DNA from: Arenicellales bacterium
GTDB lineage: Bacteria > Pseudomonadota > Gammaproteobacteria > Arenicellales > JAHEKD01
DNA: 64,000 bases
Direction of reading: 5' to 3'
Assembly (NCBI GenBank): GCA_965215945.1
Contig: CBDCFC010000018.1
Span: 61,740-125,739 of the forward strand
Position numbers and translations under genes: made by a program. Shown here piece by piece: positions 14,793-44,542 of this stretch. The notes under the pieces were generated by a model, which ran no database searches, was not told where the DNA came from, and worked only from the letters and a program-made list of their open reading frames with translations. Each line of letters starts with the position of its first letter. Within the stretch, counting starts at the first letter, position 1.

Positions 14793-15269
14793 ATGGGACT
14801 TATACACGCGCAAGTTAAATTAACTAATATCTCAATTAATCAAGCTATTGAGATTAGGGCAGTTGTTGATACTGGTATACCTTTCATGTGTGTGACTGAG
14901 GAAATGACTGTCCAACTGGGTTTCGATCTTTCTGAGTCCAGTGCACAGCATGTAATGACGATCGATAACCAACAAGTCTTGCTTCCAAAAATTTCACCAA
15001 TTGAAATTGAATTTGAAAATCGATCTTATGTGACAGAGGCACTAGTTTTAGCTGATGAAGCATTGATGGGGATGATTCCGCTTCAGGCGATGGATTTGGT
15101 AGTTGATCCAATACAACAAAAATTAATAGTAAACCCTGCACATCCTAATTATCCGCTTGTATTGGCTAAGAGTATAAACACTACAACCAATTGGAGTAAC
15201 AGAAGTAAATATTTTGAGTCGAATTGGCACCATTTTTTAGTTATATCGCAAGAAACCCACTGTTCTTAG
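14793..15269 (+). CDS. Clan AA (retropepsin-like) aspartic protease
   Basis: MGLIHAQVKLTN start, catalytic VVDTG and LMGMIPLQAMDLVVDP. About 30 extra residues after NPAHPNYPLVLAK overlap the tniQ 3' end. Confidence 0.8.
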   Translation: MGLIHAQVKLTNISINQAIEIRAVVDTGIPFMCVTEEMTVQLGFDLSESSAQHVMTIDNQQVLLPKISPIEIEFENRSYVTEALVLADEALMGMIPLQAMDLVVDPIQQKLIVNPAHPNYPLVLAKSINTTTNWSNRSKYFESNWHHFLVISQETHCS

Positions 15270-16650
15270 TGAATCGTAATTTATGGTTCAGGAAGACTTT
15301 GGGCAAAGTTAAAATAAAACAATCATTATCTTTATGAATATAGTATGGGCAAAAATATTCGCTGCTCGTCCTGACTATGGGGGGACATTCAGACCTAAGT
15401 TCGATTAAACATTTTGGGCCTTTTTTAAGTGATTTTTCTAGGTATACAAAACTTGTGTAGATTCTTAGAAATAAAGTCCATAAATCAATATGAAGTAATA
15501 ACGCCTGTATATTTTTATTCAAATAGATTGATTGGTCTAGTGTATTTTTTTTATCAAATACATTGAGTGTCGTTACCATCCTCGGAAACCTGATAAGATT
15601 ATCTGATGCCGTCAATTCCTTGAGTTGATTCGCAAAAACATAAGGGATCATCGGTGTATTCAGTTGTTCAGTTGAGACTCTGTATAAAAGTGAATTCAGT
15701 TCTTTCAAAAGAATAGATCTGAACAAATACAATGCTTTGCAAGAACCACAGTACAGTGCATAGTCGGTTTTGAGTCTGGAACAATATCCGGGGGGATGAT
15801 TTGATTTGTTGACTTCCGATATTGTGTCATGGGTTTTTCTCAAGAGTTTTTTAATGGTTTTTATCTTGATATCTTTCTCAACATAGTAACTATTCGCAGT
15901 CATTTTCTGCACTCTCGATGCGGAAAATTTTATGCAAAAATGTTTGTGTCGTGGAAGTTTGGCTGTACGAAATATACGACCATGATTAGTATTCTTATTA
16001 GAGTGGATTTTAACAGCGGTGGGTTGAAATGCTGATAATGTATTTATTGTAGGTCGATCATAAATTGATCTTTGAAATATAAATTCATACCACAAACCTT
16101 GACTTTTCTTTAGAGGCTTGAAAAGTTTTTTGAGTTTCTTTATTTCTACATATGGTTTTTTGTTGAATGCATTTCGCTCATGAAGAATCTTGATGGGTAT
16201 ATCAATCCCACAGGATAAACAGGTATTATTGAATAGTTGATTCATTGTTGGCCAACTTCCTCCGCAACCATCACAAATCTCTGTTAAAGGTCGTTTATGA
16301 ACAGGGCAGTTTGCCACCCATAGAAATTCAAATAAATCAGTGTGATAACCAATTTTTGCGCATTCAGGGCAGTTTCGCGTTATTTTAAGTTTAATTGATT
16401 TCGTTTTCTCGAAATCCAGTCGTGCTAAATTGGGATGATTGGCAGCTTGTTGATAGGCCAGGGCAATTTGAGTCAAAGGAGGACTATAAGCAGAATCATA
16501 TTTGCATTCTAAGTCAGTCACTAGTTCTTTCAGTGCGCTGGACATAATACTCTTTTCTCTCATACAACCAGAATTCGCAATTAATAAGGTTCTAAATTTC
16601 GAATAATCACTCTGATGAGGCTTAGCCAATAGTAAACCTGTGTTAATCAT
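15241..16650 (-). CDS. tniQ: TniQ/TnsD-like target-selector protein
   Basis: Zn-finger series CPEC...CPVH...CDGC...CLSC. The ATG at 16650 overlaps the tnsC stop (ATGA). It is the last gene of the tns operon. Confidence 0.8.
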   Translation of the reverse strand: MINTGLLLAKPHQSDYSKFRTLLIANSGCMREKSIMSSALKELVTDLECKYDSAYSPPLTQIALAYQQAANHPNLARLDFEKTKSIKLKITRNCPECAKIGYHTDLFEFLWVANCPVHKRPLTEICDGCGGSWPTMNQLFNNTCLSCGIDIPIKILHERNAFNKKPYVEIKKLKKLFKPLKKSQGLWYEFIFQRSIYDRPTINTLSAFQPTAVKIHSNKNTNHGRIFRTAKLPRHKHFCIKFSASRVQKMTANSYYVEKDIKIKTIKKLLRKTHDTISEVNKSNHPPGYCSRLKTDYALYCGSCKALYLFRSILLKELNSLLYRVSTEQLNTPMIPYVFANQLKELTASDNLIRFPRMVTTLNVFDKKNTLDQSIYLNKNIQALLLHIDLWTLFLRIYTSFVYLEKSLKKGPKCLIELRSECPPIVRTSSEYFCPYYIHKDNDCFILTLPKVFLNHKLRFTKNSGFLAI

Positions 16651-17609
16651 TTCTCGATACAAACCAGATTGGGTATGAGACCAGAAGCCTTGATTGATTC
16701 ATCAATCATGTCATAAGTAAGCCGATTATCATCAATACCATACCTTGGCAGATAATCAATAATGAGTGTTTTTAGAGTAGAAATGAAGTATTGCATTGGC
16801 CAGGAAGATAATTTGAGCTGTGATTTATAGTTATCATAAAAGACCTCCCAAATTTCATGGCTCAGCTCATTCAATCGCCAGCCTTTATCGTATTCAACCT
16901 TAAGAAAATATTCGGTGACTGATTGATTTTCACCGAGTGGAAATTTTACATCGTCGTATTGTTTTAAGCATTTCTTCACTTCGGCATGAGATTGTAAGCC
17001 GTGATAGATATAGCTGTCGGTAAAAAAACGACCACGAATAAGTTCATTCTCTGAACTTAATACCTTTTTAATCAAATCTTGAGTTGCCGTATAGTTGCCA
17101 ATAAAGAAAACGCTTATATTAACCTTGAGTTCCACTAAACGATCATATAGCTCAGCAAATGCCTCAAGCTGATGTATATTCAATCTGTGCATTTCATCTA
17201 CGATTAGGACGACCTGATTTGTATCGTTAGACATCGCTAATTCACCAAAGTAATGAATCAAATCGTTTGACATATCGTCAGCTCGAGCACGTAACGAAAT
17301 CTTTTTATTCAGAGAAAGGCATAAGTTTCTGAAGATGCTGGCTACGGTGTTTACATCTCGTCTGTGTATGGTTAGACGGTGTACGGGAATGAGTTGATCT
17401 GATCGATTTTTGAGTCTATTAGCAATATATTGAGTTGCTCTTGTCTTGCCAACACGGTAGTTGCCGACTATTAAGCCTCCTGTAATTCCGTTCCAGAGCC
17501 AGTGTTGGAGTTTAGATTCCAACTCTTCCATCATCGGTGTCTTAATCATGAATTCACTTTGATTGAAAATAGGGTGAGTAGAACTGAAATTAGTTTTGAG
17601 TTTAGTCAT
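16647..17609 (-). CDS. tnsC: TnsC-like AAA+ ATPase
   Basis: Walker A GNYRVGKT and Walker B LIVDEMH; ATGA overlap with the tnsB stop. Confidence 0.88.
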   Translation of the reverse strand: MTKLKTNFSSTHPIFNQSEFMIKTPMMEELESKLQHWLWNGITGGLIVGNYRVGKTRATQYIANRLKNRSDQLIPVHRLTIHRRDVNTVASIFRNLCLSLNKKISLRARADDMSNDLIHYFGELAMSNDTNQVVLIVDEMHRLNIHQLEAFAELYDRLVELKVNISVFFIGNYTATQDLIKKVLSSENELIRGRFFTDSYIYHGLQSHAEVKKCLKQYDDVKFPLGENQSVTEYFLKVEYDKGWRLNELSHEIWEVFYDNYKSQLKLSSWPMQYFISTLKTLIIDYLPRYGIDDNRLTYDMIDESIKASGLIPNLVCIEK

Positions 17610-19492
17610 GCTATTGGCCCATCTGAATACAAATTGGGCGACCAACTCGCAATTGCTTTTTTTGAAAGTAGTCTGGATCTTTTGATTTTTTGAAAATTTG
17701 CTCTTCGTTTTTCTAGCTTTTCCTTAGGATGAATAGTAGCGCTGTATTCACGAGAAACTCTGATTAACTCAGTTGAAATTTTAGGTAATTCCCTGTTCTC
17801 GAGCAAATAGTCAAAATAACCACTTAACGGGTCAGTAGAATCAAGCCGCTTCAATTTTGTAATTTTAGATATCTTTTGTCGTGTTTTTGTACTGTGAGCA
17901 AACTTTTGCCATGATTTAGGCGCATAAAGTTCACCAATTTCCTCTCCAGTCTGGGCAAACGCTTTGAGAATTCGTATATCTCTGCAATCAATTTCGACTA
18001 GAATTTCCTTATTATTCTGACGGAAACTGGAAATACATTTACCGTTATAACGTACTCCTAAAAAGTTAATATATGGATCTCGATTTTCTCGTTTGTTCCA
18101 TTTGATCTTTACTTTTTTAATCTGTTTATAAGGGCAGGCGTCGGGTTTTTTATTTAATCTAAAAAGCGGGATAGGGTAATTACGCATTTGATATTTCATC
18201 TCTTCCATGGGAGATCGACCTTTCAGCTGATCAGATGCTTTTATGTTATGTGACGTGATCAAAACGCTCAGAACTTCTTCGAGTGCGTTTATTGTCAATT
18301 TAGGCGGCTTTTTACGGTTTGATTTGCTTTCCCGAATTGGATCTGTTGGATACGATCCAGATGTTGAAGCAAATCTATTCATTTGGTCTGAAAGTTGTTT
18401 GAACGCATATTCAACATAATTTCTACCTTTGGGGTTGCCAGGTAAACCAAGATTAAATGTGGCTCCAAGAGATTCACAAATGTAATCACGTACGAGATGT
18501 GATAAATGACACAAGGCATTATCTAATCGTACAATTCCTATCCCCGCATTCTCGAATTCTGTTCCTAAACAACTCGGTAGGCAGGCACCCTGTTCATACT
18601 CAAGACCAGGTGTTTTAAGTTTCATCGGTCTCCAGGGCTTATGGATGTTTTCGAGCAAATTTAATAAATCAATTTGAGTCGGCGATTTAGTAAAACAAAG
18701 CTGAAAAGATAATATGCAATCTGATGCAACATCTTTTACTAGATAAAGTGAAAGTCGGCTTAACCGATGGGGTAGCAATTCTCCACCTACTTCAAGATAA
18801 ATGCTTGTTGTGACGTCAAGAACTTGCGAATCAATTTGTAATTCCTGATAAATTAAATTTGACGGAGTGATTGAATTTACAGTGCGCTGAATCTTTTCCT
18901 TGGGCTTGGTTAATTCTTTGGACCTTTGATGGAAATATTTTCGTGCTGTTTCGTAACCTCTTTTTTCTTGATTGAAAGGGTATTTGTCCTGCGGCCAGTG
19001 TTTCTCTCGTAAAAGCCGGAGAAATTCCGAGTGAAATACATTTGGTGTTAAATTCTGCCCATGAGATAGCTTTTTCAGATGGGCCAGAATCATTTTGTCT
19101 AACTTGACCCTTATCTCAGGATTTGATCGCATGATATGCATGAATGCACCACGATTACCAAAGTAATTCGCACCTTGGCTTAGTGGTTTCTTTCGATGAC
19201 CTAGTCTTAGTCGATAGCCCGGAATTAATGCTTTTGTAAGCGGGGGTGGAGACTGAGCATCGCCCGCTAACGATCTTTTTAACAAATGATAAATATGAGA
19301 AGTGCTGACATAGTTACGTTTAGCAATTCTATTAAAGGACATGTTTTCGAGAACACTGGTAATAATCCTACAGTTTCTATTGAAGGTTTTTTGTTTACTT
19401 TTGGGCAAATCATATAGATCGATATATGGCCAGTTGTTAAAGTTTTTGTAAGATGGAGATTGCTCCAAACGTTCGCGCCAGCTTAAGTGCAT
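17606..19492 (-). CDS. tnsB: TnsB-like DDE transposase (Mu/integrase fold)
   Basis: QIDS, RLDNA and GRNYVEYAF give the D-D-E triad; the C-terminal Mu-like region is YINFLGVRY...IDCRDIRIL. Confidence 0.85.
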   Translation of the reverse strand: MHLSWRERLEQSPSYKNFNNWPYIDLYDLPKSKQKTFNRNCRIITSVLENMSFNRIAKRNYVSTSHIYHLLKRSLAGDAQSPPPLTKALIPGYRLRLGHRKKPLSQGANYFGNRGAFMHIMRSNPEIRVKLDKMILAHLKKLSHGQNLTPNVFHSEFLRLLREKHWPQDKYPFNQEKRGYETARKYFHQRSKELTKPKEKIQRTVNSITPSNLIYQELQIDSQVLDVTTSIYLEVGGELLPHRLSRLSLYLVKDVASDCILSFQLCFTKSPTQIDLLNLLENIHKPWRPMKLKTPGLEYEQGACLPSCLGTEFENAGIGIVRLDNALCHLSHLVRDYICESLGATFNLGLPGNPKGRNYVEYAFKQLSDQMNRFASTSGSYPTDPIRESKSNRKKPPKLTINALEEVLSVLITSHNIKASDQLKGRSPMEEMKYQMRNYPIPLFRLNKKPDACPYKQIKKVKIKWNKRENRDPYINFLGVRYNGKCISSFRQNNKEILVEIDCRDIRILKAFAQTGEEIGELYAPKSWQKFAHSTKTRQKISKITKLKRLDSTDPLSGYFDYLLENRELPKISTELIRVSREYSATIHPKEKLEKRRANFQKIKRSRLLSKKAIASWSPNLYSDGPIA

Positions 19493-20133
19493 AGTGTTAC
19501 CCTCGTATCGAATGAAATGCCTGTTTGCTCTAAGTCAAGATTTATTTTTCCCCGATGTGCCAGCCTGAATACAGCGATTTCATCTAGATAACTTCTCAAT
19601 CGATCACCTAAATCTAAAATGTCGCCAAGATTAAGTTCACCGGATTCGAAAATGCGAGTAAGGATAGTTCGCTCTTGATATTGAGTATCCTCTGATTCTG
19701 CGTTTACAAGCGATCGAGTAATATGTAGCCAATTTAATCCGAGTGTTTCTTTCGCAAGAATTTCCTCATTCGAGAGAACTTTAAAAGTCATATTATTGAA
19801 ATTGAAAAATTCAACGAGTGGTATTTTTAGTTCGTCTTTAAATTTTCCCCCTGGTTTTATTTCAACAACTATTCTTTTTCCATCTTCTAATATATATAAG
19901 TCAGGTACATAGCGTCGGTTACCAACTCGTAAAGCTAAAGCCTGCGGCACAAATGACAAGACAGATGGCCTAGATTCTAAAATCGCGGAATGAATTAATT
20001 CTGCGTATGAATGAAAAATACCGGTACCGGGGAATTTAATAAAACGCTGTAAATAACAATCGGCACTTCGTAATAGTCTTAATGCTGATTTTGATTGTTG
20101 TTGTGGGATTAAACTTTCTGCGACTATGTTCAT
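19483..20133 (-). CDS. tnsA: TnsA-like endonuclease
   Basis: PD-(D/E)XK motif YVPDLY...VVEIKP, ES...E...LE and FVPQ; GGAGG RBS before ATG 20133. Confidence 0.85.
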   Translation of the reverse strand: MNIVAESLIPQQQSKSALRLLRSADCYLQRFIKFPGTGIFHSYAELIHSAILESRPSVLSFVPQALALRVGNRRYVPDLYILEDGKRIVVEIKPGGKFKDELKIPLVEFFNFNNMTFKVLSNEEILAKETLGLNWLHITRSLVNAESEDTQYQERTILTRIFESGELNLGDILDLGDRLRSYLDEIAVFRLAHRGKINLDLEQTGISFDTRVTLCT

Positions 20134-20227
20134 TATTTTTAGGCCTCCAATCTTTACGAACAAAGCGATTACAAATTCAGAACAAAAAATATATATTAAT
20201 TTCCAATAATATACGGTAAAATTCCTA

Positions 20228-20255
20228 AATAATTTGTTGTATACAACAAATTATT
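20228..20255. promoter_or_regulatory. Perfect 28-bp palindrome between divergent tnsA and HTH gene (putative operator)
   Basis: AATAATTTGTTGTATACAACAAATTATT is its own reverse complement. Confidence 0.7.
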
Positions 20256-20287: not shown

Positions 20288-20749
20288 ATGTATGTATCAC
20301 AGGGTTACAAACCCCAAGTAGCTCGTGATGTATTAAATGTTTCGCAAGAGACATTTAGATATTGGCGCGAAAATATTGATCCTAAAACAGCTCGAAGTCA
20401 CTTTTCGCCTTCGGATTTGCTTGTTTACAGAATCTTAAAGGCTTATACCATGGACCATGGTATTTCTATTAAAAGACTTAAAAATTTTGACTGGTCGAAA
20501 TTATTCACTGAATTTAATAGACAATCCTATCCGAAATTAAAAAACTTAGTTGTTGTTTTAAATCAAAGAGAAGGTTTTCTAAAATTAATGACATCTGAGG
20601 AGGCTGCACATTACAGCCATTATAGTAATCTTAAGGTAGATCTAAAAACGATAATTGAAGAGAATATTATGGCTCTACTGGGTAAAGGAGAAAACCCAAA
20701 TAAACGAATTCTTTCTTTGAACGATTTTATATTTTTAGAAACAGAATAA
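20288..20749 (+). CDS. MerR-like winged-HTH DNA-binding protein
   Basis: N-terminus YKPQVARDVLNVSQETFRYWRENI...RSHFSPSDL fits a MerR/excisionase-type HTH; GAGG RBS. Confidence 0.6.
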   Translation: MYVSQGYKPQVARDVLNVSQETFRYWRENIDPKTARSHFSPSDLLVYRILKAYTMDHGISIKRLKNFDWSKLFTEFNRQSYPKLKNLVVVLNQREGFLKLMTSEEAAHYSHYSNLKVDLKTIIEENIMALLGKGENPNKRILSLNDFIFLETE

Positions 20750-20812: not shown

Positions 20813-21070
20813 TCAGGATAAATCTAGCTTTTGATCGGTCAGTTCATTAAGTCTTTCTGGTTCGAAATCAATATCGGCTGCAGAATCCACCGAAAGTAAT
20901 TCAACAATGTTTCGTGAACCGCTGAAGAGTGATTGATAGGCTGTGATACTTAGTAAAACATATCTTGGACTACCGTCATCGGTAATGATAACTGGGCCGG
21001 AGTCAGCGCTACTTTTGGCTCTAGCAACATTGGACTCAAATTCCTCATTTGAAATTGTAGTGCTGCTAAT
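20813..21070 (-). CDS. Phd/YefM-family antitoxin (not in ORF track; ATT at the start position)
   Basis: Hand translation gives ISSTTISNEEFESNVARAKSSADSGPVIITDDGSPRYVLLSITAYQSLFSGSRNIVELLSVDSAADIDFEPERLNELTDQKLDLS*, matching the Phd pattern (REF...A...GPV.IT..G.P..VLLS...Y). GAGG RBS lies 8 nt upstream of the ATT. Confidence 0.75.
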   Translation of the reverse strand: MSSTTISNEEFESNVARAKSSADSGPVIITDDGSPRYVLLSITAYQSLFSGSRNIVELLSVDSAADIDFEPERLNELTDQKLDLS

Positions 21071-21274
21071 GGCTTATACCTCTGTACTGAGTGATAAGAT
21101 TAATAATCCCAGGATAGTACCAGATCATGTTGTGATTTTGATTATAATCACTTTTTATAAAGTAAGATTTATACCAAAACTAGGACGTTTGTGTAATCCA
21201 TGATCTAAGTAATTTCAATATAACTAAAATTTTGGTAATATATTGTCATAATTATATTATGAGGAGAAATAATA

Positions 21275-24200
21275 ATGACAATTAGAATATTTGCCGTATC
21301 ACCCTCTGGAAAATCTCGCCCGGGTATTGCCGTTGCGCTGTCTCATTCTAAAAAACACGATATCTCTGAAAGAGAAACAACTTTGGCTGTCAAGCAAGCA
21401 GATCGTGTCGGATTTATATCTTTTAAAACTGACAGTGTTCCAGAATATGGCGAATTCAAACTATACGTAGTAGGGAGTCCTGATTCGCATATCAAACTGG
21501 CCGTGGCTCATATTCCACCGGTAAGTGTGCTGGAAATACCAGATTCTGTTCCTGCAGAACCGACAGGTTCTTTTCCATCTGGATCGTGTGGTGATCCTGG
21601 AGATGTTGAAATATCGCCAGAATCCTTTGCAAAAACAACAAATATTGAAGGAAATAGCGAATGTGACTTGTTTTTACCTGGGGCACAAGCTGAAAGAGTT
21701 TATACATACAGACAACTAGCCATGAAGCCAAGCAAACCTCAACGCTTAAGATTTGCTGAAGGTGAATGCTTTGTAGATGAAAAAGGTCCGCAGATGCTCG
21801 ACGGACGAGATACTAATCCAGGTCCTTGCTATAGAAAAGGTGTTTTACTTGAGTATACGTCAACCTGGTGCGCAGTAGGTCATGCCTTAGGAGAGATCGC
21901 TTATAGTTTACCTCTTGCACCATGTGAATCTGTTAATTTGGCTGTCGTTGATTGGAGTCGCGATGATTTTACAAAAAGAACAGAATCAACTACTCAAACC
22001 GAATCATTATCTCATGATCAAAGACGTGACCGAGTTGTTGAAGAAACTGTTCAAGCTTCGTTGAAACAGACACAGCGTGGGTTTTCTGTAACTGGCGGGG
22101 CTTCGCTAGGTGGTGTAGTTTCAATCGGAGGGGGTTATTCATCTAGCACTGGAGAAACAGATCTACATTCTCAAAATACACAAAGCATAGCGGATGCTGT
22201 CCAACAAGCGAGCTCTGCTACTAGAGGCATATATAGTACGGTCATTGTTGAAGCTTCTCAGGCAGAAACAGATTCTGCCCAAACCAGAACAGTAACTAAT
22301 AACAATCATTGTCATGCAATGACGGTACTGTACTACGAAGTGCTTAGACGATATTTAGTAAGAATTGAGTTGAGTAAAGAAAGACATTTAATTCTTGTTC
22401 AGTTTGATATGCCTAATTTTACAGAGCAGTCTGCGTTATGTTTCAGATGGCTATTCGAACCAGTGTTGCTTGAACCAAGATTGAAAGATGGGTTTGATGC
22501 ACTTGCTCGAACAGAGTTTGGTGTTATTCCGCCCGACCCTTCATCATTTATTCTTCCACCATTGCCTACGCAACCAGTTACTAGGTTGAAAGTAACAACT
22601 ACAACCGGTACAAATGCTATGGATCAATCAAATGTTGACTTTGAACTATTTAAAGAAGATGGGTCAACCCTTATTTCTTTTGACTTAGATAACGAGTCAG
22701 GAGATTTTATTGACGAAGAGAATGATTTTGAAGAAGGGCAAACAAACATATTCGAAATTAGTGTTTCAGGAGATTGGAGTCCAAACGATATAGCTACGCT
22801 TGGACTTCAGTTTCATGAGTGGGGTGGTGTGGCTGGTATTGGAGGTGATGAGTGGCAAGTAGCAGAGATAACCGCACACTATAAAATCGAAGGTGACGAA
22901 GAATGGCACCTATTATACAAAAGTTCTGATGATAGTGAGAGTGGATTACCAAAAACACTATCAGGAAATGGTGTTTGGAGAAGACCTGTCCCACGAGAAG
23001 AGTCCGTTGGCCCATCACCAGAGGAATTAGAGGCTCGCAGGGCTGTCTCTAAATGGAACAGAGATATTAAGCAGGGTCAAAGATTATTGCATCATTTAAA
23101 TTGTAACCGTGAATATTATTATCGAAGAAAATGGGAAGGCGAGGATCCCGGAAATCGTGCCATTAAGCTAGCAAAGCTTAGGTATGGTGATGGGAGATTG
23201 ATAGACTCAATTGAAAATCGAGTTGTGGCTGTTGTGGGTGATACTATTGCTTTTCCACTGATTAAGAAAGACGATCCAAGCGAACCTCTTGAAAGAGCTG
23301 ATCCTGTTATTCGGTTAGTAGATTTACCAACAAGAGGACTTTTCGCTGAAGCGAAACTATCTAACTGTAATGTATGTGAAGAAAAGGATGTAACAAAATA
23401 TTGGGATTGGCAAGAGTCGCCATGTCCAGATTGTGCGCCAGAAATAGCTCCTGTTAGTTTGGGCTCACGCGATAGACCTACTTCGCCAGAACCGACTTCA
23501 TTTGCAAACCCAATTGTAAATATTACAAATCCACCTTCTGCACCTGATCCTATAGGCTTAAGTTCAGCATTACAGTTATTAGGGCAATCAGATTTATTTC
23601 GTGATATGTCAATGTCTTCAGAAGTATCAGATTTAGTATCAGATATATCATCTGGAGCAGTTACACTTGAGCAAGCTCGTATAAGGGCACAGCAAATAGA
23701 GGCACAACGTGATAGAGCTGGTTTAACTGACACTTCAAGAATTACAAGTGAGAGAAGAGCATCACCTCAGTCAACTCATGATGCCATTCAAGTGACCCGT
23801 GATGCTGTTAATAAAGGAAACTTGAGTGAAGAAGAAGGTAACCAAAAGATTTCCGATATGCTGGATGAAATGACTGGTGTAACAAGAAAAGGTGGAGAAA
23901 CTCTCGAGAGACAATGGTATAGAGAAAATCCTGGTATCAGAACGAATAATTTAGGAGCAACAGGAAATGAATTGTTGATTTGGAATTTTGATATTGGAAG
24001 TGCCGAGTTGGGAACTGACTCAGAGATTAGATCGTTAAACCTAGATGTAGAAAGGTTTTTTCTAAATAATGCCCCATTTACTTATCCTGATGGTGACGTT
24101 AGAACAGATAAAATATTATGGGTTGAGGGTCGCTCTAGTAGTAGTGGTTCAGATTTGGAAAACGAGGCACTTAGTATAAATAGAATAGCTAATGTTAGTA

Positions 24201-24889
24201 GCGAGCTTATTTCTAATTCTGCACCTAGGCCGCCAGAAATTAACATTAGAACTATACCTTTAGGTGAGGGACACCCACTCCTACCTGATGATACGCCAGA
24301 AGGTATGGCAAGAAATCGAAGTGTTAGACTCATTATAGAAGATCTAAATGAAGAATGTGAAGTAGATAGTGAGGTTCTTGGTATTGCTAGAACAATTCTT
24401 GAACGTCTTCTGGGATCTCGTCATTCTATTGATCCTTCTACACTTTGGACTCCACAAATTAATGGAATTAGAAGGTTACATCCCGTACCTACAATTCCGA
24501 CTAGAGTCTTTCCTTCTTGGTACGGATCACATACACCAGTCCCGGATGATCCAATTTGCGTAGACAGACCATCATTGTTATGTATGCCTAATGAATATCT
24601 AAGTTTTACGACCCTTGTAATCATGCTTGAAGCAGAATGCCGTAGAAGCGGTGTCTTGAATGAGGAAACTATAGGGAAAATAATAGGTTCATTTATGCAA
24701 CAAAGCCAACAGGCAATTAATGAGGAAACTAGGCTGCGTAATTTATTTCTAAGATACCCAACTTTTATCGGTGGTATGACATCTGCAAATGATATATTAG
24801 CTAGAGGCTACGATAGAATTCAAGATCAGTGGTTCTTAAGAGACCCAACATGTTCATGGAAATATATACATCCCGATGCTTCTCCCTAA
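21275..24889 (+). CDS. 1204-aa uncharacterised multidomain protein with PLAT/LH2-like and OmpA-C-like segments
   Basis: Intact ORF with GAGGAG RBS. About aa 436-547 is PLAT-like (KVTTTTG...NVDFEL...DFEEGQTNIF...DEWQVAEI). About aa 900-1022 is OmpA-like (WNFDIGSAEL, VEGRSS..G....N..LS..R, G...P...D.TPEG.ARNRSV). Confidence 0.7.
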   Translation: MTIRIFAVSPSGKSRPGIAVALSHSKKHDISERETTLAVKQADRVGFISFKTDSVPEYGEFKLYVVGSPDSHIKLAVAHIPPVSVLEIPDSVPAEPTGSFPSGSCGDPGDVEISPESFAKTTNIEGNSECDLFLPGAQAERVYTYRQLAMKPSKPQRLRFAEGECFVDEKGPQMLDGRDTNPGPCYRKGVLLEYTSTWCAVGHALGEIAYSLPLAPCESVNLAVVDWSRDDFTKRTESTTQTESLSHDQRRDRVVEETVQASLKQTQRGFSVTGGASLGGVVSIGGGYSSSTGETDLHSQNTQSIADAVQQASSATRGIYSTVIVEASQAETDSAQTRTVTNNNHCHAMTVLYYEVLRRYLVRIELSKERHLILVQFDMPNFTEQSALCFRWLFEPVLLEPRLKDGFDALARTEFGVIPPDPSSFILPPLPTQPVTRLKVTTTTGTNAMDQSNVDFELFKEDGSTLISFDLDNESGDFIDEENDFEEGQTNIFEISVSGDWSPNDIATLGLQFHEWGGVAGIGGDEWQVAEITAHYKIEGDEEWHLLYKSSDDSESGLPKTLSGNGVWRRPVPREESVGPSPEELEARRAVSKWNRDIKQGQRLLHHLNCNREYYYRRKWEGEDPGNRAIKLAKLRYGDGRLIDSIENRVVAVVGDTIAFPLIKKDDPSEPLERADPVIRLVDLPTRGLFAEAKLSNCNVCEEKDVTKYWDWQESPCPDCAPEIAPVSLGSRDRPTSPEPTSFANPIVNITNPPSAPDPIGLSSALQLLGQSDLFRDMSMSSEVSDLVSDISSGAVTLEQARIRAQQIEAQRDRAGLTDTSRITSERRASPQSTHDAIQVTRDAVNKGNLSEEEGNQKISDMLDEMTGVTRKGGETLERQWYRENPGIRTNNLGATGNELLIWNFDIGSAELGTDSEIRSLNLDVERFFLNNAPFTYPDGDVRTDKILWVEGRSSSSGSDLENEALSINRIANVSSELISNSAPRPPEINIRTIPLGEGHPLLPDDTPEGMARNRSVRLIIEDLNEECEVDSEVLGIARTILERLLGSRHSIDPSTLWTPQINGIRRLHPVPTIPTRVFPSWYGSHTPVPDDPICVDRPSLLCMPNEYLSFTTLVIMLEAECRRSGVLNEETIGKIIGSFMQQSQQAINEETRLRNLFLRYPTFIGGMTSANDILARGYDRIQDQWFLRDPTCSWKYIHPDASP

Positions 24890-25046
24890 TCTATAACTCT
24901 GCAAACATTTATTAGTTGCAAAAGAAGAATCAATGTTTATTTCTAGTTGGGCATATTCCCAAAATATTAGTAAGCGCCAAATTAGGGATGGGATTTTCAG
25001 TTAACGTTTGATCTGCCAGAGTAAGGTTTTCAAATTGGAGACTGGA

Positions 25047-25385
25047 ATGCTAGCAAAGACGATGACGACAAAACAGGGATTATGGCTAAGTCATGTTAAA
25101 GCGGCAGATGAAAGCAAAGGTACTATTGCAGATTACGCCAACACACACGGATTGCGTTTAAAAACGCTGTATCAATGGAAGTCGAAGCTAATTAAGTTAG
25201 GGCTATACAGACCTGCTGCTTAGTCGAGTCAATCAGCGTTTGTTCCGGTCGCACCTGTTCAATCCGTTTCATCAAAACCAAGCTGTAAGGTCAAGTTGAC
25301 CAATGGCACTGTGATTGAGTTTGCCGGTGAGTTGGATACCAAGATAATTCGAGCTGTAATTACCAGTTCGGAATTAAAGCGTTGA
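25047..25385 (+). pseudogene. tnpA: IS66 TnpA accessory protein with an in-frame TAG at 25221-25223
   Basis: HTH segment GLRLKTLYQWKSKL; after the TAG the same frame continues SSQSAFVPVAP...KLTNGTVIEF to a TGA overlapping the tnpB start. Confidence 0.7.
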
Positions 25386-25738
25386 TTCGTCCATCAGTGG
25401 ACTCGGCGATTTATTTATATCGCCATCCGGTGGATATGCGTAAGTCAATAAACGGACTGGTCGCGATTGTCGAAGGCCAAATGAATCTAGATCCATTTTC
25501 CTCAAAATTGTTTGTCTTTTGTAATTCCGCGAGAACGATTATCAAGATGGTCGGCTGGGAAGGCAATGGTTTTATCTTGTGGATGAAACGCATTGAGAAG
25601 GCACGATTCCGTTGGCCAGTGAATCTGCCGATAGATCAGGTTGAACTGAATGCCAGGCAGATTAACTGGTTATTGGATGGCTATGATTTAACGTTATTAC
25701 AAGGTCATTCGAGTTTACCTCATCACACTGTTCTTTAA
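25382..25738 (+). CDS. tnpB: IS66 TnpB
   Basis: PVDMRKSINGL, LFVFCN and WMKRIEKARFRWP motifs. Confidence 0.93.
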   Translation: MIRPSVDSAIYLYRHPVDMRKSINGLVAIVEGQMNLDPFSSKLFVFCNSARTIIKMVGWEGNGFILWMKRIEKARFRWPVNLPIDQVELNARQINWLLDGYDLTLLQGHSSLPHHTVL

Positions 25739-25773: not shown

Positions 25774-27369
25774 ATGAATCAACGCATTAAATCACTCCCC
25801 AATGACCCTGAACAACTCAAGGAATTAGTGATTCAATTGCAAGATAAACTCGACACAGAACAGGCTAAAAACAAACACCAATCGGATTATATCAACCAGC
25901 TAATTGAAGCAATTGCCTTAGCCAAACAGCAACACTTCGGATCACGAAGTGAGAAGTTTAATGTTGATCAGCTCTCACTATTATTCAATGAGGCCGAAGC
26001 CTTATCCGATCATGATACTGACAATTCCAATGGGCATACTGATGACGAAAGCAAAACATTGGTTGCTGCGCACGCTCGTCGTAAAGGCAAAGGCGGTCGA
26101 AGGAAGCTGCCGGATCATTTTCCCAGAATCGAAGTTGTGCATGAATTGGATGAATCTGAATGCACCTGCGGCCACTGTCAGAGTCAGCTTATTGCGATGA
26201 GTGAGAAGTCCAGCGAGCAGATCGAACTGATTCCGATGACGGTCAAGGTCATCAAACACATCAAGAAGACCTATAGCTGCCCCAACTGTAAACAATCCAT
26301 TAAGGCGGCTAAGCTACCGCCCCAGCCGATTCCGGGCAATATCGCCAGTCCGGGAACAATCGCGCATGTAGTCGTCGGTAAATATATCAACAGTATGCCG
26401 TTATATCGGCAGGAACAAGAATTTAAACGGCTGGATATTCCACTCAACCGTTCAACCTTAGCAAATTGGATGATTAAGGCTGGGTTATTGATCCAACCGC
26501 TGATTAATCTGATGCGTGATTCGATGTTGGACTACGATATTGTCCAAATGGACGAAACACGGTGTCAGGTATTAAAAGAACCGGGGAAAACGCCGCAAAG
26601 CCAATCGTTTATGTGGATTCAGCGTGGCGGGCCACCGGGCCGAAGAATCATTCTATATGATTATGCGCCGAGCCGGTCTCAAGAGATTCCCGTACAGTTG
26701 CTCGGTGATTATTCCGGTTATTTACAAACAGATGGTTACGAGGGGTATAACAAAGTTTGTCAACGAAATGACATTACCCAACTTGGCTGCTGGGCACATG
26801 TGAGGCGAAAGTTTGATCAAGCGATCAAAGCTCAGGACAAGCTCAAGACGAAGAAAGTGTCTTTAGCCAAACAAGCCTTGCAACGGATTCAACTGCTGTA
26901 CCGAATTGAGAAGAAGTCCAAAGACTTAACTGTTGAACAGCGATTCGCACTTCGCCAATCCCGGCCTGTGCCGATTCTTAAAGACCTAAGGAAATGGCTG
27001 GATCGGCAGCTGCCAATCGTGGTCAAGCAATCAGCCTTGGGCAAGGCTATGCACTATATGGATAAACAGTGGGATAAGTTAACCGTATATACGACTGATG
27101 GTCGATTACATATCGACAATAATCAATGTGAGAACGCAATTCGACCATTTGTGATTGGGCGTAAAAATCATTTGTTCTCCGACACGGTTTCAGGGGCGAA
27201 GTCCAGTGCTAATCTTTATTCATTGATTGAAACGGCTAAGGCTAACGGGTTGGAACCTTATAACTACTTAAAGACTGTTTTTACTGAACTACCAAAAGCC
27301 ACTTGTGTTGAGCAGATCGAAGCCTTGCTACCGTTCAAGCTACTGACTGAACTGGAGCAGGCGGCATAA
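25774..27369 (+). CDS. tnpC: IS66 transposase TnpC
   Basis: FGSRSEK, Zn-binding CGHC...CPNC, MDET, LQTDGY, GCWAHVRRKF and IDNNQCENAIRP motifs. Confidence 0.96.
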   Translation: MNQRIKSLPNDPEQLKELVIQLQDKLDTEQAKNKHQSDYINQLIEAIALAKQQHFGSRSEKFNVDQLSLLFNEAEALSDHDTDNSNGHTDDESKTLVAAHARRKGKGGRRKLPDHFPRIEVVHELDESECTCGHCQSQLIAMSEKSSEQIELIPMTVKVIKHIKKTYSCPNCKQSIKAAKLPPQPIPGNIASPGTIAHVVVGKYINSMPLYRQEQEFKRLDIPLNRSTLANWMIKAGLLIQPLINLMRDSMLDYDIVQMDETRCQVLKEPGKTPQSQSFMWIQRGGPPGRRIILYDYAPSRSQEIPVQLLGDYSGYLQTDGYEGYNKVCQRNDITQLGCWAHVRRKFDQAIKAQDKLKTKKVSLAKQALQRIQLLYRIEKKSKDLTVEQRFALRQSRPVPILKDLRKWLDRQLPIVVKQSALGKAMHYMDKQWDKLTVYTTDGRLHIDNNQCENAIRPFVIGRKNHLFSDTVSGAKSSANLYSLIETAKANGLEPYNYLKTVFTELPKATCVEQIEALLPFKLLTELEQAA

Positions 27370-41521: not shown

Positions 41522-41634
41522 CCCAGTGCCCACGAAGCTGTGCAAAACGGCAAGATTTTCGTCAAAATTGAACAGCCATTCTAAATACAAAATGTTCCAT
41601 TTATTATTTCCGTTAGATTGTGTATTATCTACCG

Positions 41635-44542
41635 ATGAAACAGTTTTGGACAGACACTGAACTCGGCAATTGGTGGACACTCACAGATCAGGATCATGCG
41701 CTTCTCAAGGGTAAAGCCGGGTCCGGTCGATTAGCCATTGCCTTACAGCTAAAATATTACCAGCTGTATGCTCGATTTCCAGAGTCTGTACAATACTTCC
41801 CGAATTGTGTTGTCGATTATGTCAGCACACAAATTAATCATCCATCCGATGATCTTACCCATTACTCAGAAAACAGCCGGACCGCTCGTCAGCATAGACG
41901 TTTTATTCTCTCACATCTGAAAATTTCACCTTTTGATGGTGTTTATGAAACCTCATTATGTCACTGGTTAATGGAAACAGTTCTGCCACAGGCACCGAAT
42001 GCTTCGTACCAGGATGAGCTGATTACAACCTGGTTTATTAACAATAAAGTTGAGCGCCCAGGAGCCTATCGACTGGAGTGTGTGATCAAATCCACCGAAC
42101 GTGAATTTGACGCTTATTTCAGAGGGTCAATCAATCACTGCCTAAAACAGTATGCCGCCAGCTAGATGCACTGCTTACAGAAGGCGATGGAAAAAGTGAT
42201 TTTTCGTGGATTCGTTCAGATATGGGACCGGTCAGTCTGGCGAGTGTATTACAGGCTATCGACAAACTGGAAAGGCTCAGACAGTTGAAGATTCCCGCAG
42301 ATATTATAAAAGGGATTCATCCCAAATTAATCAGCCGATATCGACAAAGGGCGGCGACAGAAAATGCCTGGGAGCATCGTCGCCACCCATCATCGATTCG
42401 TTATTCACTTTTGGTTTTCTATTGTGTTGTACGTGAAAGTGAGATTATCGATACACTGGTTGATTTGCTTATTCAGGTTATTCACAAGCTGTCGGTTCGT
42501 TCTGAACGAAAAGTCATCAATGAACTGATCAGTAACATCACCCAGGTTCATGGCAAGAACACTATTTTGTTTCATATTGCAGAAGCGGCCACGGGGAATC
42601 CTGACGGAACCGTTCGAGAAGTTATCTTTCCCGTTGCCCCGGAAGACATGATGAACAACCTGGTTAAGGAATTTCGCTCCAGCGGTCCGGCTTATGTTAA
42701 GAGAATATACACCAAGATTCGCTCGTCCTACGCCCATCATTATCGACGCATGTTACCGCGCATTTTGGATGTACTGGTATTTCGTTCAAATAATTCAAGT
42801 TGGCGCTCAATGGTAGATGCCATCACAATTATTCAAAACGCTCAATCGGATCGTCGTCGTTATTTCTCGCTGGACGAGGTGCCTATTGAGGACATTATTC
42901 AAAATAAGTGGCAGGATATTGTGATTGAACGCGCCCCCGATGGGACGCAACGCATCAACCGTATTAATTATGAAATCTGTGTACTGCAATCGCTGCGTAA
43001 CAAATTACGGTGCAAGGAGATATGGGTTGAAGGTGCCGACCGGTTCTGTAATCCGGATGATGATACCCCTGCTGATTTTGAAGAAAATCGTGCTGCTTAC
43101 TATGCGGCACTAAATTGGCCTGTGAATTCCAGAGTTTTTATCGAACAAACCCGGGCCAGTCTGACGCAGGCATTAAGCCAGCTTAATGAGAACCTGCCGC
43201 ACAATACCAGGGTTTCTATCGTGCGCAGAGGAAAAAAGTCGCATATTCGTGTTGCCAAGCTTGATCGTCAAACGGATCCACCGACATTAGCAGCTGTAAA
43301 AGCGGAGTTGAGTCATCGGTGGCCGGCCACCAGTTTACTGGATGTACTCAAAGAAACCGATTACCGGGTTGGATTTACAAAAGTGTTTTCGTCTTCTGCC
43401 TCTAGAGAGGCTATTACACCGGACGACCTCATGTATCGTTTACTGCTTACACTATATGGGTTGGGAACTAACGCGGGACTAAAACGGCTTGCGTCCGGGC
43501 AAAGCAGTCCCAGTTATAAAGAACTTCGGCACATACGCCTGCGTTTTATCAATAAGGATTCCTTGCGTGAGGCCATCAGACAGGTTGTTAACGCCACTTT
43601 TCGGGTAAGATCACCAAAAATATGGGGTGAAGCGACCACGACCTGCGCCTCAGATTCGACACAGGTGGGTGCGTGGGACCAAAATCTGATGACGGAATGG
43701 CACATTCGTTATGGTGGGCCGGGTGTCATGATTTACTGGCATGTGGATGAAAATGCAACGTGTATTTATTCGCAACTAAAACGCTGTTCCTCATCTGAAG
43801 TGGCATCAATGATCGAGGGCGTGTTGCACCACTGCACGGATAAAGAGGTCAAACAGCACTACGTCGATAGCCACGGTCAAAGCGTGGTCGCCTTTGCCTT
43901 CTGCCATCTTTTGGGTTTTTCATTAATGCCTCGTTTTAAGGGAATTGATAAAATCAAACTGGTCCAGCCTCAAAAAGGATCACGCAAAGATTATCCAAAC
44001 ATTGAATCCATATTTCAAAGCAAACCCATTAAATGGAATCTGATTGCACAACAATATGACGAACTGATTAAATTGGCCACTGCGTTACGTGAATTTACAG
44101 CGCAACCCGAGGCCATTTTGCGACGGTTTACTCGCCACAACGCACAGCACCCTACCTATCGAGCGCTGATTGAATTAGGCCGGGCTATTAAAACGATTTT
44201 TGTGTGTAATTATCTGATGTCGGAGGCGCTTCGCCAGGAAATCAATACCGGGCTGAATGTGATTGAACGATGGCATGGCGTGAACGATTTTATCTATTTT
44301 GGCAAGACGGGAGAACTGTCAACAAACAAAACAGACGATCAGGAGATTTCCATCCTGTCATTACATTTACTGCAAATGTCTCTAGTGTATATCAATACAT
44401 TGATGATTCAGCAGATACTGGCAGAATCGGTGTGGTTTGATCGGATGACGGAACGTGATATGGCTGCACTGACCCCGACGGTCAATTCGAGCTGGATATG
44501 GATCAGCGCTTGAAGTTAGACGAATTTCCCATGGCAGCATAA
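41635..44542 (+). pseudogene. tnpA: Tn3-family transposase (DUF4158 + DDE_Tnp_Tn3), frameshifted near 42150-42220 and with a short deletion near 44475
   Basis: N-part RLAIALQLKY; C-part CASDS, WHIRYGGPG, YVDSHG and LNVIERWHGVN..IYFG. The terminal GQFELDM lies out of frame right after LTP. Confidence 0.85.

Follow-up and report, generated by a model that had tools for sequence, protein, structure and literature searches.

The window analysed here, a 64,000-nucleotide stretch of contig CBDCFC010000018.1 from an Arenicellales bacterium, carries an intact open reading frame at 21275-24889 on the forward strand that encodes a protein of 1204 aa plus stop, P0001 (coordinates refer to the window and residue numbers to P0001). 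A Shine-Dalgarno-like GAGGAG precedes the ATG and the N-terminus of the product is not hydrophobic, in agreement with a first-pass annotation made from the sequence, which had described an intact frame without an obvious signal peptide. The same annotation called the protein an orphan, which proved incorrect, as hundreds of full-length relatives (E down to 1e-164) were recovered and P0001 is a member of a very large unnamed family of stand-alone proteins of 1000-1400 aa. The motif blocks that it had cited were all located within residues 210-718, namely the YSLPLAPCES block (210-227), the Gly/Ser stretch (269-295), the NNNHCH block (342-358), LPTRGLFAEAKLSNCNVCE (684-702) and YWDWQESPCP (709-718). 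The gene is composed of the following parts, listed with the evidence for each, in which AF2 stands for AlphaFold 2 and pLDDT for its predicted local distance difference test score.

21261-21266, forward strand: Shine-Dalgarno-like GAGGAG, 8 nt 5' of the ATG (direct sequence reading).
21275-24889, forward strand: whole reading frame of P0001, 1204 aa plus stop (full-length relatives as above).
21275-21559, forward strand: N-terminal beta-sandwich, carboxypeptidase-regulatory/transthyretin-like, residues 1-95 (AF2 pLDDT ~90; Foldseek 3e8v, TMt 0.70).
21560-21826, forward strand: conserved SPxSF / GCE block with Cys130, the partner of Cys698, residues 96-184 (conservation, Cys co-occurrence).
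21827-21982, forward strand: long strands A and B with the YSLPLAPCES turn (Cys217, invariant Glu218), residues 185-236 (AF2 pLDDT 70-92; covariation 195-365 and 221-339).
21983-22243, forward strand: candidate membrane-insertion element, beta hairpin or two helices, residues 237-323, 87 aa (two AF2 states, period-2 conservation, covariation register i+j ~558-560).
22070-22150, forward strand: uncharged Gly/Ser/Ala-rich tip of this element, residues 266-292 (one face hydrophobic, the other Gly/Ser).
22244-22402, forward strand: long strands C and D with the NNNHCH turn (invariant N342, N344 and H347; Cys346), residues 324-376 (conservation, AF2, covariation).
22562-22999, forward strand: PLAT/LH2-like beta-sandwich, a constant scaffold part, residues 430-575 (profile, Pfam, Foldseek, insert length).
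23012-23674, forward strand: second half of the scaffold core, residues 580-800 (helices 582-633; LPTRG...CNVCE; SPCP; FRDMS; Cys610, 698, 701 and 717).
23675-23956, forward strand: helical linker, residues 801-894, conserved to about residue 860 (conservation, AF2).
23957-24349, forward strand: OmpA-like domain of the peptidoglycan-binding fold, residues 895-1025 (Pfam, NCBIfam, Foldseek, PDB phmmer).
24350-24886, forward strand: terminal module without detectable relative, residues 1026-1204 (homology searches; AF2 pLDDT below 50).

A word-indexed search recovered 240 full-length relatives of P0001, the best 120 of which span E values from 7e-164 to 1e-84 and are annotated as hypothetical. 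An exhaustive HMMER scan with residues 1-860 against 1.84 billion cluster representatives (clusters at 50% identity) returned 3448 clusters at E<=1e-3, of which 1290 reach E<=1e-30. When one genome per species was considered, family members were encoded at 282 loci, distributed over nearly all bacterial phyla, including Proteobacteria, Actinobacteria (many Nocardia and Streptomyces), Firmicutes, Bacteroidota, Cyanobacteria, Chloroflexota, Planctomycetota, Acidobacteriota and Nitrospirota, and over two methanogen lineages (Methanosarcina and Methanotrichaceae); three further matches lie in lichen-fungus assemblies. The scaffold was not recognized by Pfam, NCBIfam, PADLOC or PHROGs, no defence family of PADLOC-DB 2.0 matched P0001 at E<=1, and no sensor or NTPase domain was detected with Pfam and NCBIfam. 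The portion of the literature that was searched, including full-text terms of PMC7159879, yielded no description of the family. The host genome holds a single copy and, among 40 host relatives, one congener (of three) encodes a member at 33% identity, and a weak match, to the OmpA-like part only, occurs in one further genome.

Two of the non-bacterial copies have features of their own. The Gallowayella cf. fulva copy (L092:8001-11849, on a 196-kb contig) is an intronless member of 1282 aa in a gene-sparse region with a GH12 gene, a non-ribosomal peptide synthetase condensation gene and a gene with a HeLo cell-death domain, which looks like a transfer into a eukaryote. The copy on the chromosome of Methanosarcina sp. 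Mfa9 has an in-frame TAG (L008:6580-6640) at the equivalent of P0001 residue 199, in a conserved EYxxxW-x-PxGH block; since the frame runs on both sides, this is either pyrrolysine read-through or a pseudogene.

Conservation mapped on P0001 forms two blocks (1-420 and 600-800), is weaker to ~860 and disappears beyond, so that a body of ~860 residues is constant across the family. This scaffold consists of the N-terminal beta-sandwich (one relative carries an NCBI name of the N-terminal carboxypeptidase-regulatory-like type), a beta-rich core (~100-420 and ~580-800) and the PLAT-type sandwich. An AF2 model of residues 1-1200 (mean pLDDT 65, predicted template modelling score (pTM) 0.46) gave high confidence to the N-terminal and PLAT-like sandwiches, to strands 185-236 and 324-376 and to helices 384-415 and 582-633, and low confidence to 239-323, 695-780 and the C-terminal 150 residues; a second model, restricted to residues 96-425, reached a pLDDT of 64.7 and a pTM of 0.53. 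Structure searches assigned the scaffold to no known benign family, and a BFVD search gave nothing meaningful. When the family profile was compared with all PDB sequences, the sole match was the PLAT domain of Clostridium perfringens alpha-toxin (E 0.0011).

The PLAT-like similarity suspected in the first-pass annotation is well founded in structure, though the isolated segment scores below the Pfam gathering threshold (PF01477, 20.2 bits against 23; E 0.001). Its model (pLDDT ~80) is an eight-stranded beta-sandwich superposable on solved PLAT domains, and Foldseek matched it to alpha-toxin (E 4e-6, probability 1.0, root-mean-square deviation (rmsd) 2.4-3.4 over ~142 columns) and, across alpha-toxin, lipases and lipoxygenases together, at probability 1.0, E 4e-6 to 3e-3 and rmsd 2.4-4.5. 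P0001 thus shares the beta-sandwich fold of the C-terminal alpha-toxin domain, and its modeled PLAT domain may be of the lipid-binding type; it differs from the alpha-toxin, lipase and lipoxygenase domains in being only 12-17% identical and in being embedded mid-way in a different scaffold. The annotation had taken the domain for an inserted, swappable module, which the family does not bear out. Stretch 420-595 is poorly conserved in sequence, with a median length of 169 aa and a length of 140-200 aa in 217 of 222 members, and this constant length makes PLAT a part of the scaffold rather than an exchangeable insert.

The segment between strands B and C, residues 237-323, was predicted in two states. 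In the full-length AF2 model it prolongs both strands into a hairpin of ~60 residues per strand (pLDDT 33-42); in the isolated core it is modeled as one helix at 251-268 and another at 294-320 (pLDDT up to 76), and because of this second run both states are retained. Family-averaged hydropathy has a 100-degree, helical periodicity in 236-268 and 295-323. Conservation, in turn, has a period of 2 over 245-276 and 285-341 (p<0.0005, 2000 shuffles), compared with 3.6 in a control helix (582-610). After the Cys pairs, the strongest covarying pairs are 270-288, 266-290, 268-290, 268-292 and 272-284; together with 242-316, 260-298, 221-339, 219-341, 195-365 and 192-366 they all lie at i+j ~556-562, a nested antiparallel register centered on 279/280 that agrees with the full-length model. 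The same register, at i+j=560, brings together invariant residues of complementary type (R253-D307, E257-Q303 and E265-R295).

The two faces of this hairpin differ in composition along its length. At the tip (265-292), the variable, even-numbered face is hydrophobic at a fraction of 0.37-0.41 and nearly uncharged (tip charge 0.01-0.17 in the column-wise face analysis), and on the conserved, odd-numbered face the Gly/Ser/Ala/Thr fraction of most positions is 0.94 or higher, with exceptions at 273 (Met, 0.88 hydrophobic), 277 (0.77) and 281 (0.71). The variable face of the stem is polar. Face analysis, period-2 conservation and covariation register thus agree on an amphipathic, uncharged hairpin of the kind used for insertion, and we read 237-323 as a segment constrained by two states, whose tip resembles in design the hairpin with which a beta-barrel pore spans the membrane. 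Glycine-zipper motifs are present in every member but were rejected as a signal, being expected by chance at 60% Gly/Ala/Ser; a glycine-zipper helical hairpin was also dropped as the sole reading of the segment, given the period-2 conservation and the covariation of alternate residues.

Five pairs of Cys residues co-occur almost perfectly across the 222 members, counted below as both present, only the first, only the second, and neither.

Cys130 and Cys698: both 216, first only 0, second only 3, neither 3.
Cys346 and Cys701: both 129, first only 0, second only 1, neither 92.
Cys217 and Cys717: both 114, first only 2, second only 0, neither 106.
Cys406 and Cys600: both 86, first only 5, second only 3, neither 128.
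Cys389 and Cys610: both 17, first only 1, second only 0, neither 204.

Lost pairs are replaced pairwise, by Ser and Ser or by Gly and Ile. P0001 has four of the five, which join its most conserved motifs (GCE, YSLPLAPCES, NNNHCH, CNVCE and SPCP) in one knot. Given this pairwise gain and loss in the alignment, the Cys pairs look like disulfides rather than a four-ligand metal site, and disulfide-like pairs would in turn point to folding or action outside the cytoplasm.

Beyond the scaffold, the OmpA-C-like module of the first-pass annotation was supported by structure, whereas its sequence scores remain below cut-offs (PF00691, 23.1 bits, E 9.5e-5, gathering score 27.2; NCBIfam 1.9e-6, far below the curated cut-offs; PDB phmmer 7e-6). 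Foldseek returned 6jfw, 4rha, 5u1h, 7rjj and 3s0w at probability 1.0 and TMt 0.54-0.65, with PA0833, the OmpA C-domain, OprF and MotB among the proteins matched, and the model has the beta-alpha-beta-alpha-beta-beta fold of the OmpA C-domain. With the OmpA-like domains of TagL (type VI secretion system, 7bba), PA0833, OmpA and MotB it shares the fold (TMt 0.62-0.65), and an alignment to TagL 7bba and 5m38 showed that N-x2-LS-x2-R and ARNRxV are kept. In contrast to those domains, it is part of a 1204-aa protein that has neither signal peptide nor lipobox, and 180 more residues come after it. This tail is as obscure as initially described: no relative of the last 180 residues turned up as a short protein, inside a longer one or among 400 genomes from the class of the host.

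C-terminal diversity was then quantified on the tails of 237 proteins, defined as the sequence from 90 residues past the FRDMS motif and clustered by BLAST. These fell into 74 clusters, 41 of them singletons. On a FastTree tree of 437 scaffold columns, the 68 tail labels required 118 changes, compared with a minimum of 67 and ~145 after shuffling, which indicates that tails are exchanged often. Modularity with swappable domains, as first proposed, therefore holds for the tails past ~860 and not for the constant PLAT domain. Recognizable tails comprise OmpA, Amidase_2, PG_binding_1, an Rv2525c-like glycoside hydrolase, Peptidase_C92, Peptidase_C70, CBM5/12, DUF2272 and DUF4056; most match nothing, including the commonest type (44 members, both archaeal copies among them). 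P0001 belongs to an OmpA-type cluster of 16. Among the 14 other OmpA-type members examined, five in which the end motif was located continue past the OmpA-like domain for a further 170-210 residues that vary from member to member; one stops 13 residues past the end motif, and in seven the end motif was not located. In some tail types (relatives P0058, P0064, P0067, P0083, P0099, P0102, P0103, P0209 and P0213), unlike in P0001, a strongly hydrophobic, transmembrane-like stretch lies close to the extreme C-terminus. A constant N-terminal part with diverse, recombining C-terminal modules is also the layout of polymorphic toxin systems (Zhang et al. 2012, PMC3482391), from which the P0001 family differs by having no adjacent immunity gene, known trafficking domain or link to a secretion system.

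The gene itself lies inside a mosaic of mobile DNA. Upstream are a Tn7-like tnsA-tnsB-tnsC-tniQ run (15241-20163, reverse strand), a divergent helix-turn-helix gene (20288-20749) and an 86-codon Phd/YefM-like frame (20816-21073, reverse strand; Pfam E 3e-4, below cut-off); the latter is probably a remnant, as it has no ATG, GTG or TTG near its beginning and no recognizable toxin partner. The Tn7-like module is very divergent: the presumed tnsB (17606-19492, reverse strand, 628 aa) and tniQ (15241-16662, reverse strand, 473 aa) have no Pfam match even at E 0.1, tnsA has only a weak one, and tnsC matches AAA_22/TniB. Downstream, an IS66 element starts within ~100 bases of the P0001 stop (possible orf1 25008-25223, tnpB 25382-25738, transposase 25774-27369) and may have displaced the original neighbor of the gene. 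Beyond it lie a resolvase, a HAD hydrolase, a methylase, a DISARM-like operon, a split Tn3-family transposase (41620-44513, forward strand; DUF4158 part 41620-42165, DDE part 42222-44513) and a second resolvase. The Tn3 DDE part shares 95-97% identity with a copy in one congener, whereas a flanking core gene reaches only 64-70% with its orthologues in the congeners, suggesting that the Tn3 element was recently mobile. Carriage on mobile DNA, as initially claimed, is therefore correct with respect to the mosaic; membership in the Tn7-like cargo was not established, as a search for Tn7 ends found no repeat family, no second copy of the palindrome at 20233-20250 and no terminal repeats, and as the gene sits on the tnsA-proximal side, beyond tnsA, where the right end of the element is normally expected. 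At other loci the family gene stands alone. Across all open reading frames of 80 loci, Nocardia synteny aside, there was no conserved neighbor or immunity gene (five contexts were also inspected by hand), and no cognate immunity gene immediately downstream was shared.

The existence of the family is well supported, as are its constant, PLAT-containing scaffold, its polymorphic tail, the fold of the OmpA-like domain and the pairing of Cys residues. Pore formation and oligomerization are inferred from the amphipathic, uncharged hairpin tip, the two alternative AF2 states and weak shape matches to pore-state toxins. Our preferred explanation, put forward tentatively and at somewhat less than an even chance, is that P0001 is released as a toxin and perforates membranes in the manner of beta-barrel pore formers, with a polymorphic end that targets the envelope. 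Lacking a Sec signal, it would exit the producer through lysis or another route and act in an oxidizing environment; PLAT would dock it on the target membrane, where it would oligomerize. Segment 237-323 would then refold from a packed, partly helical state into the long beta hairpin, its tip spanning the membrane as in beta-barrel pore-forming toxins, while the C-terminal modules would bind or cut the target cell wall, or be the cargo of the pore to the wall. Beta-barrel toxins such as aerolysin, the anthrax PA, CDTb and iota Ib group and the staphylococcal leukocidins likewise have a Gly/Ser-rich, uncharged amphipathic hairpin between long strands and accessory binding domains on a pore-forming core. 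In the Foldseek search against the PDB, a check that the first-pass annotation had suggested, the remainder of the full-length model had no matches other than pore-state aerolysin, CDTb, iota Ib, anthrax PA, leukocidins and Cry51.

Several observations weigh against this explanation. The pore-former matches have a TM score of 0.11 or lower, an rmsd of 26-50 A and a probability of 0.75 or lower and lie on the low-confidence part of the model (pLDDT 33-42), a resemblance in shape rather than homology. The isolated core (96-425) matched nothing in the PDB (best Foldseek E 3.3), which leaves the scaffold core without a solved relative, and no Pfam or PDB sequence match indicated a core fold homologous to that of beta-barrel pore-forming toxins. 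Since P0001 fell outside every named pore-former family tested, we propose that it works like these toxins and not that it is a member of them. It is also much larger than they are and has a fused polymorphic C-terminal region. On the conserved face of the stem, invariant charged residues alternate with conserved hydrophobic ones, a mixture that sets it apart from those toxins and is odd for a water-filled lumen, and hydrophobic alternation within individual sequences was no better than in shuffles over the first and last 13 tip residues, so that the pattern is a column-wise one. The export signal expected of pore-forming toxins was not found, as neither P0001 nor any of the 222 relatives examined has a hydrophobic N-terminal segment or signal peptide, and no conserved secretion, chaperone or immunity gene accompanies the family in the contexts examined. 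This conflicts with the disulfide-like Cys pairs, each of which is present or absent independently of the others in statistics that ignore phylogeny. Finally, of the peptidoglycan-contacting residues, the Arg of LS-x2-R is kept, but the OmpA-like domain has Ser (R-S-S) at the Asp position of H-T-D in the alignment to 7bba and 5m38, unlike the domains it otherwise resembles.

Helix-to-hairpin conversion is found, and can be compared in principle only, in MACPF proteins and cholesterol-dependent cytolysins, where a segment between sheet strands is helical or a hairpin, as 237-323 may be with its 3.6-residue hydropathy and 2-residue conservation signals. P0001 differs from them in having no MACPF or cholesterol-dependent cytolysin match in Pfam and one such element instead of two, and perforin-2 was retrieved only at E>5. 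A broader proposal, which we consider more doubtful than the toxin function of P0001 itself, is that the whole family is an unrecognized superfamily of self-contained pore-forming toxins with their own fold, a helix-to-hairpin insertion element, a PLAT anchor, a recombining wall-directed C-terminus and non-classical export, in bacteria, methanogens and lichen fungi.

The missing signal peptide and immunity gene are better explained by the main rival reading, in which P0001 is an intracellular suicide effector of abortive infection or programmed cell death, which would wait in the cytoplasm until triggered and then perforate the inner membrane of its own cell so that the wall module reaches peptidoglycan, a holin and endolysin in one chain. 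Family genes stand alone, often beside integrases, insertion sequences or AbiEii, TIR or NB-ARC/CHAT genes; the P0001 gene itself is near transposons and a DISARM-like operon, the distribution of the family among the host relatives is patchy (one of three congeners plus the one weak, OmpA-only match among 40), many hosts are filamentous or aggregating, and the fungal copy is near a HeLo cell-death gene. We nevertheless regard this as unlikely. Five disulfide-like Cys pairs in the scaffold are unexpected for a protein waiting in the cytoplasm, and suicide leaves them unexplained; PADLOC gave no match, neither a sensor nor an NTPase domain was detected, and several contexts are ordinary metabolic neighborhoods.

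Less likely again is a non-lytic role at the surface or in the envelope, in which P0001 would serve, for example, as an adhesin, a spacer or a component of an envelope-spanning assembly, anchored to the wall of its own cell by the C-terminal module and to a membrane by PLAT. Tails of the OmpA-like, PG_binding_1 and CBM5/12 types bind rather than kill, surface proteins often have a sandwich like the N-terminal one, no immunity gene was found, and the three OmpA-type members in named genomes are all from diderms, as is the present host given its BamA. However, other tails are hydrolases (Amidase_2, Peptidase_C92, C70 and Rv2525c-like), the tails are shuffled almost randomly over the scaffold tree as in conflict proteins, the patchy distribution is linked to mobile elements, export signals are missing here as well, and archaea without peptidoglycan carry the family. 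An enzyme, with a catalytic or metal site formed from the invariant polar residues E218, N342, N344, H345, H347, R687, E692 and E702 and targeted by PLAT and the tails, is improbable: covariation and Cys pairs 217-717, 346-701 and 130-698 do place invariant His, Asn and Glu residues of the turns close together, but no enzyme family matches in sequence or fold, and invariant residues also extend over the entire hairpin, a distribution more in keeping with a structural or lumen role than with a single pocket.

Overall, thousands of clusters over three domains of life make up this family, yet it has no name, and its 700-residue core has neither a Pfam model nor a solved relative. Should P0001 be a suicide effector, the family would be a single-gene lysis device of defence islands. 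If it is a released pore former, it would represent a new architecture in a well-studied class and a secretion puzzle, combining disulfide-type Cys with the lack of an export signal, and its members would hold a large natural library of wall-directed end modules, most of them unknown.

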